Source of the DNA: Carcharhinus longimanus
Lineage: Eukaryota
Direction: 5' to 3'
DNA: 64,000 nt
NCBI GenBank assembly: GCA_030264375.1
Contig: JASCQW010000001.1
Coordinates: forward strand, 112,170,318-112,234,317
Under the pieces are notes generated by a model. The model ran no database searches, was not told the origin of the DNA, and saw only the letters and a program-made list of their open reading frames with translations. Shown here in pieces: positions 22,189 to 61,599 of the stretch (its first letter is position 1; each line of letters opens with the position of its first letter). Position numbers and translations under genes: made by a program.

Positions 22189-22426
22189 AAAAGCAAAATA
22201 CTGTTGATGCTGGAATCAAAGAAAAACAGGAAATGCTGGAAAATCTCAGCAGGTCTGATGGTATCTGTGGAGAGAGAATCGAGCGAATGTTTTGAATCTG
22301 AATTACCCTTTGTCAGAGCTGCACGGATCTCTGACCAAGGGTCATCCACATTCAAAACATTGACTCTATTCTCTCTCCACAAATGTGGTCAGACCTGCTG
22401 AGATTTTCCAGCATTTCCTGTTTTTA
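22189..22426. mobile_element. Penelope-like tail-to-tail fold-back element
   Basis: 97-bp inverted arms (22222-22318 and 22329-22425), outer 37 bp perfect, 10-nt loop. Confidence 0.75.
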
Positions 22427-33071: not shown

Positions 33072-33935
33072 AAATGACATCAGCGTTCATTTATGCCATA
33101 GGCCCACAATTTGCATAAGTTATTAAGGCTCCTGTTGAATTCAGCATTGGCAGACTGGGAACAGGGCAGTAGCTCCATCACCTCTGTTACCTCCATTTCT
33201 GTTGGCTGGAAGAAGTTAAGTTCTTCCTCCTCGCTTTCTCACCCCCAAGACTGATGAATGTTTTGGGAGAGGCTACTTTCAATTTTGGAGAGAAATAAAA
33301 TCTTTGGAACAATAATACTGATGATCCATGTTTTGTAATTTAATCCCTCTTTATAGGTTACAGTATGTTCCAGCAAAAGGACATGATGTCCACAGTGGCA
33401 CTTGGAATTTCTTCTAGATGTCACAAAATCCATTTCTTTGAGTAGAGAAAAGCTTTCAGTTGAAAAGGGCAGAAAATTATAAATAAATAATCATCCTCAA
33501 GGTTGAAAGTGCACATAAAAAGCTAAATGGACAACAGTAGTGTCATTGACATAGAATGGACAAACCCAGGTTCTAAAGCATCCAGAATGAATTTTGAGAG
33601 AGCTTGTTGGATACAAGCTTCTTGTTGGGCCCTGACTTTCTTCTTCTCAATCTCCAGCAACTTCCAAGGCTCAGTTTTATTATATAGAGGTAGCCAGTCC
33701 CTGATGAATGCTTGCATTGCTAAACATGACCTTGTGTTGTGGGCTACTTTGTCCCATTAAAAAGAAATGAAATTGGAATGAGTGGTATGACATTGTTGAG
33801 AAGTGACATTTAAGAAGCCCCCGTCATGATGGAGCTATTTCCCTGTTCCCAGTTTGCCAATATTTAATTCAACAGGAGCCTTGTTAACCTATGCAAATTG
33901 TGGGTCTGTGGCGTGCATGAACACTGATGTTATTT
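33072..33935. mobile_element. Non-autonomous element with 109-bp terminal inverted repeats, family unknown
   Basis: 33072-33180 is the ungapped reverse complement of 33827-33935 with about 16 mismatches by manual count. Confidence 0.7.
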
Positions 33936-52411: not shown

Positions 52412-52666
52412 TGATTGATTTATAGCTAATGAAAGGCAGGAGTAATTGATTAAAAAAAACCTATAATTGATCTGTTTTGAATTGTTTACATCAAATTTTC
52501 ATCGGAGATGTCTAGGTGCTTTATCTCAGAGTTGCCCTGACCCTTTGGTTTCTCCTAGCTGCCACTGGTCTAAATAAAAGTTATGTCTTTAAACTGAGTT
52601 AGTGGCTTTGTGAGTCTTGTATTGTCTGAAGTTTCAGCAGTACCGGCCACCTCAGAAACCGCACCA
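52120..52666 (+). promoter_or_regulatory. Putative 5' LTR
   Basis: TATA-like ctataat at 52461, AATAAA at 52573-52578, CA at 52665-52666 shortly before the PBS; contains a (TA)n at 52380-52409. The 5' boundary is a guess because there is no second LTR to compare. Confidence 0.5.
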
Positions 52667-52673
52667 GTCTTTC

Positions 52674-52689
52674 TGGCGAGAGGATATGG
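52674..52689 (+). promoter_or_regulatory. Primer binding site, tRNA-Ser(GCU)-like
   Basis: TGGCGA-GAGGAT versus TGGCGACGAGGAT, the complement of the vertebrate tRNA-Ser(GCU) 3' end; one base deleted. Confidence 0.65.
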
Positions 52690-53159
52690 TCACCGGAGTC
52701 TAATAGCGGGATGTGCCTCCTCAGAAAGGGTGAGTATCTTTACTTTACCGCCCGAGCTGCTTAGAAGGAGAAATGCATCAAGTTGTCGGATCTGTAAGTT
52801 AACCTGTCCGAACGAGCATTTGGGGTCACAAGATTAGTGTCAGTGACTAAAGAAACCGTGTTTAAACAAGAGGGTGTGATAACCAATCTGTGAGTGGAGT
52901 CAAGAGAGCCGCCTGGTGGGATAGACGTAAAAATTATTGGGCACACTTAATCCAAAAGGCCAGGGATGGAATCCTGGTACTGTTTGCTCAGTAGAGCCAA
53001 GAGTGTCGTGCATCAGTTAACGCAAGAGGCAAGAACCAACTGGAGAGGGCATTAGTCAGCCTAGACATTAGAGTGCCCCATGGGACCGGGAGAGAGAAGC
53101 ATTTTTGAGTTATTGGGGTGGAGAACTCAGTAAGGCATCCCCGGTTAGGAGAAATTAGA

Positions 53160-54736
53160 AGACAAGGGTCAAGCTTTCAGCAGGGGGTTAAGGGCTTTGA
53201 CCAGGAGGAATTCCCAGAGAAGGGTCTGTGGAATTGGAAGGGAAAGTGGATAGAAAACAGAAATAGAAATTAGAGAGAGGGAGAGAGAAAGGGCAAGCGT
53301 GTTGGGAAAGCCAGTAATATGAAATTGAAAAACACAGTGAGGTTAGAAGGTCTAGAATGCCCTACTGTGGTCATGTAGAGTATGAAAGAAAGTGTAAATT
53401 TAACATGGGAAAAAGATGATTTGTTAATACAAAAGATAGTAACAGAGCATGATTAATTAGGAAAATGATAGAGAAATGATCTGATTTAGAGATTTCTGAG
53501 TCCCTGAGCAAAAGTCCTGGTGGAAAGCCCAGATTAAACAAAAACCAGAATGGTCGTGGTGATTCACGCTGCTATGATGAGAAATCACCTTCAGAAAGAG
53601 CCAATTAACAAATAGTTAGTCACTGCAAAAACTGTTGGGGAAGACTCTGAAGTGTGCCTATAGAGAGGGCGGTAACCAATTCATCGTATCCCCCAATTCC
53701 AAAGGAGTCAGCTGAGGAGGAAATAGTTTGGGAAGATTTATCAGGAAGGGTAACTCACAGAGATGGAAATTCCCCTAAGGATAATAAGGTGGGATTGCCT
53801 GTTCTGGTAGCACCACTCCATACAATAATAAAATCAACTGGTAGAGGGAGAGGAACAACCACTGTAACTACTGAGGAAGCACCATGTTAGGCAACTGAGA
53901 AGCAGATGCTTATGGATTAATTTAGGTCTATTGTGTCGTTATCACCAAAATTTGTCTTTGGAAAAGTATGGATGAGTTATGAGATGTTTATCATTTGACT
54001 TTGGATGACATAAGAATTTTAGTAAAGGGAAAGTTAGCAGCACCAGCATGGTAATTGTTACCTGAACCTTTAAAAAGGAGAAATTGGATATTTGCAACGT
54101 GTGATAGTGAGGACCAAAGATATGAACAATTAACTGGGTGATAGGGTGAACTATTGGTAAAAGACACACCAGTTGGACAAAGGTAACTTTAGTTAAACAC
54201 GATCCCAAAGAATCCGTAAAAGAATACAGAGAAAGGTAATTCAGGGCTTCTGTAGATAATCGAGGGGTTGAAAATCTTACTAGAGATGACGATATGTTTT
54301 TGGGCTTGCTCAGAGAAGGGTTTCGTCCAGCTCTGACTTGAATTATAGATTTGGGTATTCCAGTAGGAAATAATTATCGGGATGCTATGAATTGGGCTAT
54401 GAAAACAGAATCCAATTACCAGAAAAATCCCAAGATGATTCCAGTACAAATTGGTCAGTCACAACCTAAACTTATAAAGGGCTTTGCCTGTTGAAAGAAA
54501 GGACGTTTTGCTAGGGATTGCCGAAGCAGAGACACAGGAAATAATCTGAGTTACGAAAAACAATACAGCAATTGTCAAAGGTCATAACATGAAAAAATGT
54601 TGGGTGAAAAGGAGGGGTAGAGAAGGACAGGGTAACAACTAGGCAAATTCATCCTCTGAGTCTCAAACCCAAAGTATTACAGCCAGTATTTCAGATGACA
54701 GCAGCTGAATTGCAGAAATTGTTAGGTCAGAAATGA
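53160..54736 (+). pseudogene. gag: Retroviral gag relic
   Basis: Many stops. PVLVAPLHT..TTEEAPC; knuckle relics FAC*KKGRFARDC (about 54483-54522) and SNCQRS*H..CWVK; ends MTAAELQKLLGQK-TGA. The start is uncertain. Confidence 0.7.
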
Positions 54737-56918
54737 CAATTAGCAGCTCTTGAGATTGCAGGTAGAGATCCCCCAGTATGTAGAAGCAGTTTTTGGAAGC
54801 CAACCTACATCGTGTTGGTAGACACTGGGGCATCTATATCGACAACACATTTAAACTTGCCAACAACTGATCAGACCATACAGTTGCAAGAAATAACTGG
54901 GAGAATTAAGACCACGTTATTGAGTGAACTTACTACATTGGAGATTGAGGGTAAAGGGGTCCAGATTTGGATATGTTCAACAGAGGAAGGAAGTATTTTA
55001 GGGATAGACCTGTTCGAACAATTGGGGGCTATAATCGATACCAAGGCAGGTAACGTAAGGTGGCATACGTTGTACAACTGAAATCGATGGGGTGAGAAGA
55101 AAGGTTGCAATACCTCTAGAATAGGGACACTCTGACAAAATTGGGAGAATGGAACAATATAAGGAAATTTGGCTGCACAGTATCCTCAGGCTTGGTCCGA
55201 ACACAAACATGATTGTGGGTATTTAGATGTCCCTCCGATAGCAATTCCCGGAAATGTTCATTGTCCACGTAGACAATACCTCTCAAACTAGAAGCAATGG
55301 AAGCAGTTAAAAAGGTCATTTCAGATTTAGAAAAGCAACAAATAGTAACCAAGATCTCTTTGGAGACTAATTCACCTGTTTGGCCAGTAAGAAAGCCAGA
55401 TGGCAGCTATCGATTAACTATCAATTACACAGCTTTGAATCGCTCTGTGACTCGAGAGCATTCCAAAGTGGTGAATCCAGCTAGCATCCTGAACACCACT
55501 GAATAGAACAGATGATACTTAGAATGCTAGACATAGCTAATGGATTTTGGTCAATTCCTATAACTGAGGAACATCAATATAAGTTTGGAATAACATCAGG
55601 AATCAGCAATGAAGTTGGACCTATCTGCCACAATGATTCCATAACAGTCCAGCGATTTTCCACAAATGCCTGGCACAGGTAATAGAGCCTTTAGAATGCA
55701 GAGGAACAACCATTTTGCGGTATGTGGGTGACATTTTGATAGCAACGAAAGGATAGAATGGGGAGAGAAGGAAGCACAGGCTTTCTCTGATTTAACGCAA
55801 GTTATGTTAAAAGCTCTCCCATTAGGATTATCAGATCTCACTAATCCATTTCACATTTTTTTGTCAGGAAAATGATGGAATGCAAGCTGCAGTGGTGACC
55901 AACAACCTGGAGACAGGTTAAATAAGACTAGTGGGGTACTACTCCATCCAGCTAGATTTAGTTGCTAGAGGTACGCATCAATGTGTGAGAGCACTAGCCA
56001 TGCCTCATGAGCAATAAGTGGTTCAGAGCCACTTACCCTGATGGGAAAAATAATTCTCCACAGTCCTCACTCAATTGTCCAGCTTGTAGAAGCTGGAAAA
56101 TTAAAAGGAGTTTCTGATGGAAGATGTTCAAAATGGGAAGCAAATCTCTTGCCAGTAGACAGGCGTGTAGAAATCAGCAGAGATGTAAGGGAAAATTCTG
56201 CAGGAGGATTGACAGTATGAGGAACAGAGCACGAATGAGTTGCAGAAATGAATTAGGGAGCAAGTGAAGGTTTAGCAGAAGAACCGCTCACAGATGAAGA
56301 GGTGATTAACCTATATGTGGACAGAGCTAGAAAATATGTTAATGGTAAACCCCGCACTACATGGGCAGTGGCAAATGATGAAGGAACAGTGATTTGCAGG
56401 AGAACAAATCCCAGGGAGTAATTCAGCACAAGTAGCAGCAGCTTTAACTAAAATTGTAGCATGGAGCATCGGAAAACGAGTTAACATTTATACAGACAGC
56501 CGACATGCTTTTGGGGTAATTCATGACCATGTGACAGCTTGGAGCAGGCGAGGTTTCATTCCATCAAGCAGTGGACATGTACAGCGTGAGAATTTGGTTA
56601 ATGATTGAATCCAAGCCGCCTGTAATCCCTTAGAAGCAGCTATAATCAAAGTGCAGGCGCACAAGAAAATTAAGAGTCAAGCACAGAAGGGAAGCAGTCA
56701 AGTTGACAAAACAAGATTTATTAGAACAGAATTGGAAAGGGACAAAAACAGATGTGGCAGCATTACAAGTTAATGATATCACAGATATTAATGTGAAGCA
56801 AGTACAGGAACAAGTGTCAGAGGAAGATGGCGTACGAAGAAAAAGGAAAATAATAGCATCAGAAGCAATACAGCAAACCTTGTTAAAAGTATAGCATGGA
56901 TTAGCTCGTACAAGTAGA
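54737..56918 (+). pseudogene. pol: Retroviral pol copy A: protease, RT (internally deleted), tether, RNase H, start of IN
   Basis: LVDTGAS, ILGIDL, NSPVWPVRKPDGSYRLTINY, LDIANGFWSIP, LPQ*FHNSPAIFH, YVGDILI, VGYYSIQLDLVARG, NLYVD, NIYTDSRHAFGVIHD. Confidence 0.92.
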
Positions 56919-57165
56919 ACAAAGAACAAAGAACAAAGAACAACCCAGCACGGGAAACAGGCCCTTCGGCCCAACAAGCCCGCGCCGCCACNNNNNNNNN
57001 NNNNNNNNNNNNNNNNNNNNNNNNNNNNNNNNNNNNNNNNNNNNNNNNNNNNNNNNNNNNNNNNNNNNNNNNNNNNNNNNNNNNNNNNNNNTGCACCTGC
57101 AGGCTGGGTTTTTGCGACTCATGCACAAGGACCCCGAGGTCCCTCTGCACCGTCGCCTGCTGCAG
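56919..57165 (-). mobile_element. CR1 3' portion spanning a gap
   Basis: (agaacaa)n tail, gggccgaagggcctgttt, and QRDLGVLVHESQK after the gap. Confidence 0.85.
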
Positions 57166-57378
57166 TTAGGAATCAGCAATACACTTGGATTCATCTGCCA
57201 TAGGGATTCCATAACAGTCAGCGATTTTTCACAATACATGGCACAGATAATAGAACCTTGAGACTATGCAGGAACTATCATCTTGTACTATGTGGATGAC
57301 ATTTTGATAGCATCAATAACACATTGCTGTGCCGTACACAGAGCGATTCAAGCAATTCACAAAGCTGGTCTTATGCTA

Positions 57379-57471
57379 CATGATGCCGGCGTCGGACTGG
57401 GGCAAACACAATAAGAAGTCTCACAACACCAAAACTGGTTGGACTTTAACCTGGTGTTGTGAGACTTCTTA
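57379..57471. mobile_element. Short Penelope-like insertion with an internal hairpin
   Basis: 8-bp TSD TTATGCTA (57371-57378, 57472-57479); removing it restores the RT frame KAGLMLNPSTAQLGQEQVTYLGH. Confidence 0.8.
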
Positions 57472-58592
57472 TTATGCTAAATCCTAGCACAGCACAGTTG
57501 GGGCAGGAACAGGTGACGTACCTGGGACATGTTATATCCCGAGGTTAAAAAACAGATTCCAGAAGATCGAAAGAAAGCTATGCTTTGTTTGCAAACACCA
57601 CTTGCGGCACAAGGGGCGAGACAAGAGTTAGGACTTTTTAATTATTACAGGAATTTTGTGGAAAATTATGCAGTGTTGGCAAAACTCTTCTGGATTTGAT
57701 TAAAGGAGGAAGGATGCAATGAAAAAATAGAATGGGGAAAGGAGGAAGCAAGGCTTTCTTCAATTTAGAACAAGCTATGGTAAAAGCCCCTGCATTAGGA
57801 CTATGGGATTTTACTAAATATTTCACATTTTCTGCCAAGAGTATGATGGTGGTAGCCCAACAACATGGGCACAGATTAAGACTGGTAGGGTATTACTCTG
57901 CCCAACTAGATTTAGTTGCCAGGGGTATGCATCGATGTGTGAGAGCACTCGCATTGCCTCATGGGCAGTAAGTGTTTCAGAGTCACTCATCCTGATGAGA
58001 AAAATAATTCTCCACAGTCCTCACACAATTGTCCAGCTTTTAGAAGCCGGGAGATTGAAAGGACGGAAGATGTTCAAAATGGGAAGCAAATCTCTTGCCG
58101 GGGAACAGGCATCAGCAGAGATGTAAGGGAAAACCCTGCAGGAGGATTGAGAGTGCAAGGAACAGAGCATGACTGTGTTACAGGCGCGAACGAGGGAGAA
58201 AGTGAAGGTTTAGCAGAAGAACCACTCAAGGTGATTAACCTATGAGTAGATGGAGCTAGAAAATATATAAAGGGAGAACACCACATTGCATGATAAATGA
58301 TGACGGAGCAGTGATTACAGGAAAATAAATCAGAGGGAGTAATTCAGTACAAGTAGCAGAGTTGTTATCTTTAACGAAAACTTTAGAATGGAGCAAAGGG
58401 AAATGAGTTAACACTTAGACAGACAGTAGATATGCTTTTGGGGTAATGCATGAATAAAAAGCTTGGACAGACGTGGTTTCAATACATCAAGCGGGGGTCA
58501 CGTACAGCATGGGAATTATATTACAAATCTAACCCAAGCGATTATATTACAAATCTAACCCTAATCAAAGTGCAGGCTCGTAACAAGATTAA

Positions 58593-58706
58593 GGCCAGAA
58601 TTTTATCAGCGTGCTGAGGGTGGGCAAGGCTCATGGAATGGCATCCTCCATTGGCCTCAGGCGGGATCTTACGAGCCTCATGGGGCAAGGTGGTAAAATT
58701 CTCAGA
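58593..58706. mobile_element. PIF/Harbinger-type MITE
   Basis: Absent from copy A; TAA duplicated on both sides; ends ggccagaatttta / taaaattctcaga. Confidence 0.7.
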
Positions 58707-59426
58707 TAAGAGTCAAGCACAGAAGGGAAATAGTTAACCTAACAAAACGGCAAAATGTTCATTAATACAAAATTTGAAAGGAACTCAAACAGCAAGTGCG
58801 GTCGTATTACAAGTTCGTGACGTTACAGACATTAATGTGAAGCAAGTACAGGAACAAGTGTCAGAGGAAGAGAAGCAGAAGTGGGTAAAAGAAGAGGGAC
58901 AAAAAGATGGTGAATGGAGAAGAGGAGAGAAAATAATAGCACCAGAAACAAACTTTGTTAAAAGTACACAATGGATTAGCTCATACAAGCAGAGATGAAA
59001 TGGTCAGCTTAGTTGGAAATCGTTGGTGCTGGAAAGGTGTGGGAGGAGGCATAGCAAATTTTTGTTAGAGGCTGCACAGTGTGCCTTGGTGGAATTAGGA
59101 CGTCACCACAGGGTTAAGATGTGGTCCCAAAGGACCAGGGGAATATTTGCTGATGGATTTCACAGGACAACCATTTGGAGTAAAAGGGAGGATTTATTGT
59201 TTAGTAATTATTGGTCAGCTTGCTCGATGGGTTGAAGTATTCCCATGTAAGTATGCCACAGCCAAAACTGTAGCTTTGATATTGGTGAATGAAATAATAC
59301 GAAGGTGGGGAACGCCTCTTCAGATAGACTTAAGACCAGGGATCTCACTTCACAGGAAGAGTTTTAAGAGAAGGCTGTAGAATGTTAGGGATGCCATATC
59401 ACCCAGAGGGCTCAGAAACGGTAGAA

Positions 59427-59694
59427 GACCAGTGCCCCACAAGGCTGTGTCCTCAGCCCTTTAATATACACTTTATACACTGACGACAGCATGGCCAAAT
59501 TCCTCTCCAACTCGATTTTCAAGTTTGCTGATGACACCATCGTAGTGGGTTGGACCTCAAGCAATGACAAGACAGAGTACAGGAACGAGGTAGAGAGTCT
59601 GGTGAACTGGTGTGATGACAATAATCTCTCCCTCAATGTCAACAAAATGAAGGAGATAGTCATCGACTTCAGGAAGTGTAGTGGAGGACATGCC
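59427..59694 (+). mobile_element. Rex1-like LINE RT fragment
   Basis: Open frame APQGCVLSPLIYTLYTDD..KFADDTIVVG..WCDDNNLSLNVNKMKEIVIDFRK. Confidence 0.85.
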
Positions 59695-59793
59695 NNNNNN
59701 NNNNNNNNNNNNNNNNNNNNNNNNNNNNNNNNNNNNNNNNNNNNNNNNNNNNNNNNNNNNNNNNNNNNNNNNNNNNNNNNNNNNNNNNNNNNN

Positions 59794-59921
59794 NGAAGTA
59801 CTAGGCCACTCCCGGAACCTCCAAGAGCAGCCCACGCACGACCCACCGTGTGCATGCCCCTCGTTTCACAATGAGGTGGACCTCCACCTGCGGAATAAAA
59901 GACAAAAACGTTAATCACATT
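59794..59921 (-). mobile_element. Probable CR1 5' region / start of ORF1
   Basis: Minus strand SCVGCSWRFREWPS resembles the CxxC..W..RE start of CR1 ORF1; bounded by the GTAGA repeat at 59922-59926. Confidence 0.5.
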
Positions 59922-60870
59922 GTAGAGATACAATGGTCAAATTAGTTGGAATTTGGTGGTGGAAAGGTATGGGAGAAATGATAGCAAAATTCTGTCAGAA
60001 ATGTTTACAGTGCACGTTAGTGGAACCAGATCATCACTGCAAGGTTAAGATGGGGAACCAGCTGAGACCCAAAGGACCATGGGAATATCTGCAGATGGAT
60101 TTTACGGGACCATCACCTAGAGCAAAAGGGAAGACTTATTGGTTAGTAATTATTGATCGGTTCAACGATTGTTGAAGCATTCCTACGTAACAGCCAAAAC
60201 TGTAGCTTTGATGTTGGTGAATGAAATAATACCTAGGTGCTGAATGCCCCTTCAGTTTGACTCAGGCCAAGAAACTCATTTTACAGGAAGAGTTTTAAGA
60301 GAAGTCTGCAGAATGTTAGGGATAAGACAAAAATTTCACATACCATATCACCCACAGAGCTTAGGCATGGTAGAACGAATGAATTAAACACTGAAGAATA
60401 GTTTAACCAGGGCCATTTTAGAGGAAGGAAACAATTGGGTACAGGCTTTGCCTGCAATATTGTTATGACAGAGAGCTACACCATCCTGAGGAATAGGATG
60501 AACCCATTTTGAATTGATGACTGGTAGGTCAATGTGCCTCCCTAAGGATGTAATAACAGGGGGAGGAGAACTTGAAGTTGGCCGAGAAGCAGTGTGTCAG
60601 TGTACGAGAGATTTAGTAGACCATTTACATATTCTCAAAAATTAGGTAATCATTCAACAGCCACATGGAGATTGGATCAAATTGGCAGTGGAGTACATTC
60701 CTAAATTACCTACACCAGGGGATAATGTAATGGTGAAACTCATGATAGATAAAAAAGAGCTAGGGATCAGATGGGAGAGGCCATTTAGCATGATGGTGAC
60801 AGGACAAATGTACCCTAATTGATGAGTAGTACAGTCCACGATAGCGACCTTAAACACAGCTGAAACCATA
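59922..60870 (+). pseudogene. pol: Retroviral integrase, continuation of copy A
   Basis: CQKCLQC, GPWEYLQMDFTG, LVIIDRF, THFTG, FHIPYHPQSLGMVERMN*TLK, WVQALPAIL, FELMTGR, RWERPF. Confidence 0.9.
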
Positions 60871-61599
60871 CCCCAGTAATAACAAAATTGACCCAGAGGG
60901 TGGATAATCTTGTAGAATAGGGGATCATCACAGCTTTTATAGTCACATTACTGATAACAGGGATAATTTGGATTTGCAGATGATTTATTAGATTGGGCCA
61001 GATTATGATGCTTGGATAATAGAGGAAATTGAAATGATTTAGTTAATGTGATACTAACTCAAGTGCTGCTGGGCACTTTAAGTTTACAGCATATCTGATA
61101 TACAATTTGTGAGATCTGAGAAATTTCAGGTAGATTCCCCCAGAAGTGGCGCTGTGGGTAAAGTTCCACACAGTTAACCAAAGGAAGATGTGAATACCGT
61201 CAGCTAANNNNNNNNNNNNNNNNNNNNNNNNNNNNNNNNNNNNNNNNNNNNNNNNNNNNNNNNNNNNNNNNNNNNNNNNNNNNNNNNNNNNNNNNNNNNN
61301 NNNNNNNGTTGTGAATACGGTCAGCTAAAACAGTACAAGTTGGTTTTGGGTTTGGGATGGGTGGGGTGGGTATGGGACTGGGGGTGGTCTATTGGTATCA
61401 TTTAGTAGCTAGATGTCAAAAAGAGGGTGAAGAGGATCAGCACCAGAGGCTGCAGAAGAGTATTTGAATTTGGGAGCTGGATCCTTAGGGAAAGGAAATG
61501 AAGACATCAGGAGTCTAAAGGGATGAGAGCAGCAGCAGCAGTTGGGATGTTGCGCCACACCAGTCTTTTGGAAAATGATCTTGAGACTTGGTTGATTGA

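Follow-up and report, generated by a model that had tools for sequence, protein, structure and literature searches.

The stretch of DNA analysed here (the window) comprises 64,000 nucleotides (nt) of the forward strand of Carcharhinus longimanus contig JASCQW010000001.1 (assembly GCA_030264375.1, positions 112,170,318 to 112,234,317). At about 52670-60900 it contains an element that, judged by its sequence, is the remains of a heavily decayed long terminal repeat (LTR) retrovirus; all features of this element described below lie on the + strand. The subject of this work is the junction between its gag and pol genes, where a TGA codon (54734-54736) is followed by the hexamer CAATTA (54737-54742), coding for Gln-Leu. 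The window reads AAATGACAATTA at 54731-54742 (AAA TGA CAA TTA), exactly as an earlier, sequence-only annotation of this DNA (the original prediction) had it. The hexamer is an exact match to CARYYA, the type I readthrough context, and is also the hexamer of tobacco mosaic virus (TMV) itself.

Reading frame of the gag/pol junction

The TGA is preceded by the C-terminal tail of gag (54608-54733), open in the TGA frame, and is followed by a retroviral aspartyl protease (54737-55078) with the motif LVDTGAS at 54812-54832. The Leu codon of this motif begins at 54812, 26 codons past the TGA and in the same frame, and this frame holds no stop over 54737-55078, which agrees with what had been predicted. 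The protease stretch is matched by Pfam RVP (E 2.1e-4, 22 bits vs. a cut-off of 20.7). Across 54608-55078 (157 codons), the only stop in this frame is the TGA, and the other two frames are closed by five and seven stops in 54560-54812. Frames were assigned with a second-order, codon-position-specific Markov model trained on 14 homologous pol pieces (the frame model), which in leave-one-out trials was right in 62/89 cases at 39 nt, 31/34 at 93 nt, and 19/20 at 126 nt (18/19 at 126 nt where the margin was at least 2). The stretch 54608-54733 scores best in the TGA frame, with a margin of 11.7 log units, and thus the gag tail would run into the TGA. On the letters and the frame model, the TGA is the probable gag terminator and readthrough codon, and gag and pro-pol in one frame, split by a stop, is the most likely reading, although it is traced through decayed frames. 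The TGA frame also yields G-R-D-P directly before the first protease strand, resembling G-P-R-P-F of the elephant-shark endogenous retroviruses (CmiERVs) and G-D-Q-R-P-Y of the Xenopus element XtERV-S (motifs read and compared by eye), which tips the balance to the TGA over a rival TAG at 54741. In all ten protease/Pol relatives that were retrieved, the protein begins either at the protease or within it and carries no fused Gag (10/10), as would be expected from a stop or shift just ahead of it; this is weak evidence against a fused open reading frame (ORF). It is fairly probable that TGA 54734 was the true gag/pro-pol junction stop of a now-dead endogenous retrovirus (ERV) resembling Ovex1 and the snakehead retrovirus (SnRV).

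Several observations weigh against this assignment. Residues 2-11 of the relative P0013 match 54777-54806 at 80% identity in a different frame, and the frame model also puts 54777-54803 in this displaced frame (margin 3.2); therefore the first protease strand is displaced, and the frame must break at least once on the way from TGA to DTG. The relation of TGA to DTG is the net of two compensating breaks, near 54776 and 54805, so the predicted in-frame relation holds for the net frame and fails as a clean single path. The 13 codons past the TGA favour its frame by 1.3 log units only, and over 54744-54775 the rival frame has a slight advantage (0.7 log units). Premature stops are frequent in the first pol copy of the element (copy 1), at 13 in 672 homologous codons, nine of the 13 being TGA. 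A search for homologs of the gag tail found none, and the frame of the tail rests on composition scored by a pol-trained model.

Signal or coincidence in the CARYYA hexamer

From the composition of the element, the probability of CARYYA after a stop is 0.0020-0.0030, that of the exact CAATTA after a stop is 0.0004, and that of RYYA given CA is 0.036-0.038. In a forward decay simulation, an ancestor that carried the motif gave the match with a probability of 0.39-0.61; the probability was 0.002-0.003 when starting from a random context, ~0.011 from UGA-C, and 0.02-0.03 from UGA-CA. An ancestral motif is thus favoured by a likelihood ratio of ~35-55 over a UGA-C background and of ~160-225 over a random context; with half of the relatives carrying UGA-C, the combined ratio is of the order of 50-100. 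The posterior for a selected CARYYA, calculated by hand, is ~0.3, 0.6, and 0.9 at priors of 0.5%, 2%, and 10%, respectively. The prior is low, because CARYYA occurs in none of the eight published junctions of relatives (0/8) and is listed in neither of two reviews; here and below, statements on published work refer to the parts of the sources that were available. With a confidence just short of even, we propose that the CARYYA at 54737 is a selected, type I-like signal, reached independently of the tobamoviruses by an SnRV-like lineage.

The absence of the hexamer from the eight relatives itself counts against selection, and other points do likewise. Counted in any frame on the + strand of the element, CARYYA follows 4/494 stop triplets (54633, 54734, 57212, and 60188). 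The other three sites are clearly incidental: two lie off-frame inside pol, and the third, TAA CAACTA (54633-54641), precedes the junction by 101 nt in another frame, one that holds seven stops in 54560-54812, and serves as a chance control. In the whole window, both strands included, stop+CARYYA is found at 18/6867 stop triplets. The match is rare for one pre-chosen site and too common to stand alone, and several candidate stops and motifs could have drawn a reader's eye. Finally, blastn of 52750-54900 and of 54600-54900 against the window gave no other match, which leaves a single copy of the junction.

The strongest alternative shares the junction and differs on the signal only. The stop would be real and the hexamer coincidental, with CAATTA simply encoding the first two residues of the protease region and readthrough depending on the leakiness of UGA-C together with 3' RNA structure (type II-like). 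This is a serious possibility, though one that we place below even. UGA-C is found in 4/8 relatives and UGA-CA in 2/8, without YYA; RYYA follows CA 3.6-3.8% of the time in the element; stop+CARYYA arises there incidentally three further times; and a stem-loop is predicted at 54757-54844. However, the exact TMV hexamer falls at the one stop singled out by the frame analysis, the likelihood ratios given above favour an ancestral motif over both backgrounds, and the stem-loop is not significant, 31/500 shuffles being as stable and its window ranking 8/96. The original prediction had allowed for chance, and rightly so: at 0.3% per stop and ~1% given UGA-C, the two possibilities are about evenly balanced. 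Its proposal that Gag-Pol was made by CARYYA readthrough is upheld for the TGA as the probable gag stop, for which the frame model and the layout of relatives speak, and stays about even for a selected hexamer.

Folding was performed with ViennaRNA, which cannot predict pseudoknots. The modest stem-loop starts ~21-25 nt 3' of the TGA and has weak support (z -1.8); the best-placed 90-nt window, which was picked by eye, gives z -1.8 to -2.2, and two fixed windows show no significant stability (z -0.26 and -0.51). Rfam returned no recoding family in 54500-55100 at E<=5 and nothing relevant. Decay since insertion may have eroded the structure. With a stem-loop predicted at this distance, the idea that readthrough here was "simple," i.e., structure-free, is neither supported nor refuted.

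Other candidates for the gag stop

It is unlikely that the TGA is a nonsense mutation acquired after insertion in a spacer codon, the true junction then being another stop (e.g., TAG 54640), a fused ORF, or a frameshift. Premature stops make up 1.9% of the codons of copy 1, mostly TGA, and therefore about one is expected in the ~55 codons between nucleocapsid and protease; moreover, the end of the second nucleocapsid knuckle lies in a frame that is terminated by TAG 54640, where the next base is G and the context thus resembles type III. The frame model, however, leaves that frame before the TAG, with a preference of 3.6 for the TGA frame over 54604-54640. A junction stop is present in relatives, and the TGA is the sole stop on the most parsimonious path. 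The other frames, with their five and seven stops, hold no open frame for a programmed shift. A stop created by decay would be followed by CARYYA only ~0.3% of the time, and none of the 13 decay stops in pol carries it (0/13).

A reading in which the real gag stop is TAG 54741 (TAG CAG CTC, 54741-54749), in the frame of the displaced protease piece, with a frame break just upstream leaving the TGA off-frame, is quite improbable. It requires an equal number of frame breaks, the piece 54777-54803 is homologous in its frame, the near tie over 54744-54775 goes to it by 0.7, and UAG is the gag stop in SnRV and Ovex1; nevertheless, the TGA frame is preferred in sliding 45-nt windows as far as the one that starts at 54735, it is in the TGA frame that G-R-D-P appears before the first protease strand, and the residue before this strand is the initiator in three relatives, which the CAG of the rival frame is not. 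A programmed -1 frameshift into pol is ruled out, both other frames being closed over 54560-54812.

With TGA 54734 kept as the gag stop, the locus is most likely a UGA readthrough junction of the ordinary kind, left by a dead SnRV-like ERV and carrying an unusually strong TMV-type context. In the active virus, gag and pro-pol would have lain in one frame, and most ribosomes would have halted at the TGA, giving Gag. A few percent would have inserted an amino acid via a near-cognate tRNA, giving Gag-Pro-Pol; the usual near-cognate tRNAs at UGA are those for Arg, Cys, or Trp (PMC13517186). Leakiness would come from the 3' context UGA-CAAUUA itself, perhaps aided by the downstream stem-loop. We infer both the TGA as the ancestral stop and readthrough as the mechanism, whereas the letters, the net frame, the protease homology, and the decay are read directly. 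The present copy makes no protein.

Organization and decay of the element

A primer-binding-site-like sequence beginning TGGCGA (52674-52691) lies ~100 nt past the AATAAA (52573-52578) of a probable 5' LTR. We take it to resemble a serine-tRNA primer site, as a resemblance only; no tRNA gene was found in the window. The decayed gag (matrix/capsid region, 52950-54480, 5' limit uncertain) carries many stops and frame breaks and is placed by its position between the primer site and the nucleocapsid and, for 54150-54570, by the frame model; five pieces scanned from 52950-54480 matched no Pfam family. Two decayed CCHC-type nucleocapsid knuckles follow (54480-54600). The first (~54480-54521) weakly matches lentiviral Gag/nucleocapsid chains (best E 0.0098), and the second (~54564-54600) is split over two frames and was read by eye.

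Beyond the junction, pol is present as three overlapping fragments in tandem (54742-56990, 57092-59430, and 59915-60820), with N gaps at 56992-57091 and 59695-59794. Past the protease, copy 1 contains reverse transcriptase (RT, with LDIANGFWS), tether, RNase H, and the start of integrase (55273-56918). It lacks ~100 RT residues near 55750 (positions 318-417 of the relative P0016) and, besides the 13 premature stops in 672 codons, shows six frame switches from 54806 on, which confirms that the element is decayed, as had been noted. The second fragment (57165-59426) runs from the C-terminal half of RT to integrase without a gag/pol junction, and the third (59915-60819) holds the zinc finger, core, and C-terminal domain of integrase. 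Over their longer matches, the fragments share 75-81% identity; the junction is present in the first alone, the other two beginning inside RT or integrase. Copies 1 and 2 differ by a Kimura two-parameter (K2P) distance of 0.21; a decay of ~0.14-0.18 per site would account for the stop density, and the observed decay is about 10-17% per site. The tandem fragments are either nested or adjacent insertions or the product of scaffolding that joined different loci. Over the three fragments, Pfam gave RVP, RVT_1, RT_RNaseH_2, RNase_H, Integrase_H2C2, rve, and MLVIN_C, most of the matches lying below the curated cut-offs because the pieces are short. The order is protease, RT, tether, RNase H, and integrase, with the retroviral dual RNase H, and is colinear with the relatives P0016-P0019.

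In the second fragment, the RNase H region is interrupted by ~110 nt (58590-58706) that are missing from copy 1, and a fragment of long interspersed nuclear element (LINE)-type RT (59425-59694; Pfam RVT_1, E 3e-11) breaks the integrase before the assembly gap. A short hydrophobic stretch after the last integrase piece (60820-61200) might be the start of a decayed env; neither an env body nor a 3' LTR could be made out, and the putative 5' LTR occurs just once in the window. The flanks of the element are rich in repeats resembling short interspersed nuclear elements (SINEs), which we take to look like cartilaginous-fish SINEs. Elsewhere in the window, there are two long inverted repeats, one at 22222-22425 (97-nt arms, 10 nt apart, 88% complementary) and one at 33072-33935 (109-nt arms, 646 nt apart, 85% complementary); both are probably head-to-head repeats or small DNA transposons.

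Relatives and lineage

Ten relatives were kept, namely 6/12 matches of a protein search and 4/5 matches of a profile search (7999 searched). From the former, P0002, P0004, P0006, P0007, P0011, and P0012 were dropped as long, multi-stretch matches of low identity that were not inspected, and from the latter P0020 (E 2.4e-4, 34% covered). The profile search gave matches in 5/7999, four of them the relatives, none with Gag. Fused Gag-Pol relatives were sought among longer proteins with a read-through query of the junction (0/869 candidates) and with one of the integrase (0/511 candidates), each result being weak evidence. The only match among prokaryotic genomes (L001, 20 residues) was taken as chance. 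A search of the ESM Atlas with the relative P0005 gave generic protease/RT clusters only, and the protease by itself found no retroviral match in the PDB.

By its motifs, compared by eye, the element is most like an SnRV/Ovex1-like ERV. Foamy virus RTs are the best PDB matches of P0005 (E 9e-18); a foamy virus identity, with a Gag that lacks a Cys-His knuckle and a Pol started separately in another frame, is ruled out by the knuckle remnants and by gag running into the protease frame. A Lokiretrovirus identity is rejected as well, the element having protease next to RT and a PQ-FHNSP motif, whereas Loki Pol has a long protease-RT stretch and CPFGYSNSP in RT (two passages of the supplement of PMC7947760).

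Junction contexts in other retroviruses and significance of the locus

Simple CARYYA readthrough at this junction had been thought unusual for a vertebrate retrovirus. An in-frame gag stop is present in 8/8 published fish, frog, and SnRV-like junctions that were examined. These are UAG-GGC in SnRV, UGA-AGA in SSSV, UGA-CGA in ZFERV, and UGA-AGU in RMEV (PMC13517186, which gives three bases past the stop), UGA-CAG-GAU in XtERV-S (PMC8278194), UGA-CAU-GUU in the elephant-shark SnRV-like CmiERV-I (Han 2015, PMC4422223; read by eye), UGA-CUC-UCA in a second CmiERV, probably of scaffold 324 (PMC4422223; read by eye), and UAG-GGC in zebra finch Ovex1 (PMC2717909). UGA is thus the stop in 6/8, UGA-C is found in 4/8 (ZFERV, XtERV-S, and the two CmiERVs), UGA-CA in 2/8, and CARYYA in 0/8. 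Fish, frog, and SnRV-like retroviruses in this literature are ordinarily arranged for stop-codon readthrough, at UGA among other stops, and it is only the hexamer that is unusual. UGA-C is recurrent, and a systematic survey of junction contexts in aquatic and SnRV-like retroviruses may be worth more than this locus.

Type I readthrough is known for tobamoviruses (TMV, UAG-CAA-UUA), beny- and pomoviruses, and the insect Providence virus (PMC3542737). The sequence TGA CAA TTA has the stop followed by CAR YYA. The natural type I stop is usually UAG, and UGA here speaks against type I; it is nonetheless compatible with function, because CARYYA stimulates readthrough at UGA too, as at all three stops, and needs no structure (PMC3542737, PMC13517186). 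In reticulocyte lysate, UGA can replace UAG in the TMV context. According to PMC13517186, CAAUUA-derived contexts after UGA gave >15% readthrough in HEK293T reporters. The type III pattern, UAG followed by G or a purine-rich spacer and, 8 nt downstream, a compact pseudoknot, differs from UGA-CAA-UUA in its stop and spacer. Section 2.1 of the 2026 review (PMC13517186) describes animal viruses with type II and III contexts only, and the 2012 review (PMC3542737) lists one insect virus as type I; in their available parts, neither lists a type I retroviral junction. No report of such a junction in a retrovirus was found in the accessible text of open-licence papers. The 9-nt stop+CARYYA strings gave few matches, those listed lying outside junctions, in the accessible supplements of PMC7947760 and PMC4299795, where line breaks can hide matches.

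If the signal is real, a vertebrate retrovirus would have used type I readthrough, a case absent from the lists in the available parts of both reviews, and the UGA-C(A) junctions of frog and elephant-shark ERVs would be weaker neighbours of UGA-CAR-YYA. The significance of the TMV-type context depends on conservation across copies, because one damaged copy leaves design and coincidence about equal. If UGA-CARYYA is conserved at the junction, a retrovirus would set its Gag:Gag-Pol ratio by a short linear signal with no pseudoknot. According to PMC13517186, it is not known which cis-signals epsilon-like and unclassified fish retroviruses use, and a conserved hexamer would fill this gap and offer a cheap reporter test of recoding in aquatic retroviruses. 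If it is not conserved, the locus would be ordinary, a further example of a UGA-C junction in a dead ERV.

Comparison with known systems

The TMV signal shares with the element the identical CAAUUA and adenines 5' of the stop. The tobamovirus-type cases, however, mostly use UAG, occur in RNA viruses other than retroviruses, and have both conservation and experimental proof behind them, whereas the element has UGA in one dead proviral copy known from its sequence alone. SIRE1, a soybean Sirevirus, is an LTR retroelement in which a stop codon is suppressed. SIRE1 is said to use CARYYA at this stop. It is, however, a Ty1/copia element, and the suppressed stop lies between pol and the env-like gene; the parallel drawn in the original prediction therefore stands for stop suppression and fails for the gag/pol position.

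Among retroviruses, the gamma- and epsilonretroviruses (murine leukemia virus, MLV, and walleye dermal sarcoma virus, WDSV) have the outcome proposed for the element, Gag-Pro-Pol made by suppression of an in-frame gag stop. The former use UAG-G with a compact pseudoknot and the latter UAG-R with an extended stem-loop (PMC3542737); the element differs in having no such purine context past the TGA, pseudoknots not having been searched for. In XtERV-S, a Xenopus class III ERV, gag is parted from pro-pol by an in-frame UGA, and the next codon, CAG, fits CAR; translational suppression was proposed for it (PMC8278194). Its second codon is GAU and not YYA, its RT carries an ERV-L-type variant of YXDD, and that paper groups it with class III (PMC8278194).

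The closest likeness is to the SnRV-like viruses. In its RT and integrase motifs, the element is, by eye, very close to CmiERV lineage I (PMC4422223), and its protease-RT linker is similar to that of Ovex1 (PMC2717909). With SnRV, CmiERV-I, and Ovex1, it shares gag, a probable in-frame stop, and a protease directly against RT, and with SnRV-like viruses the RT motifs LD(I)xNGFWSIP and PQGFHNSP (by eye), the tether and RNase H, and an integrase with a C-terminal domain. A zinc knuckle in Gag is common to the element, SnRV, and CmiERV-I, the count being two remnants in the element, one in SnRV, and none in Ovex1. The distance from the stop to the catalytic Asp is 28 codons in the element compared to 40-44 in SnRV-like relatives, and the junction context is UAG-GGC in SnRV and Ovex1 and UGA-CAU-GUU in CmiERV-I, while CARYYA is found only in the element.

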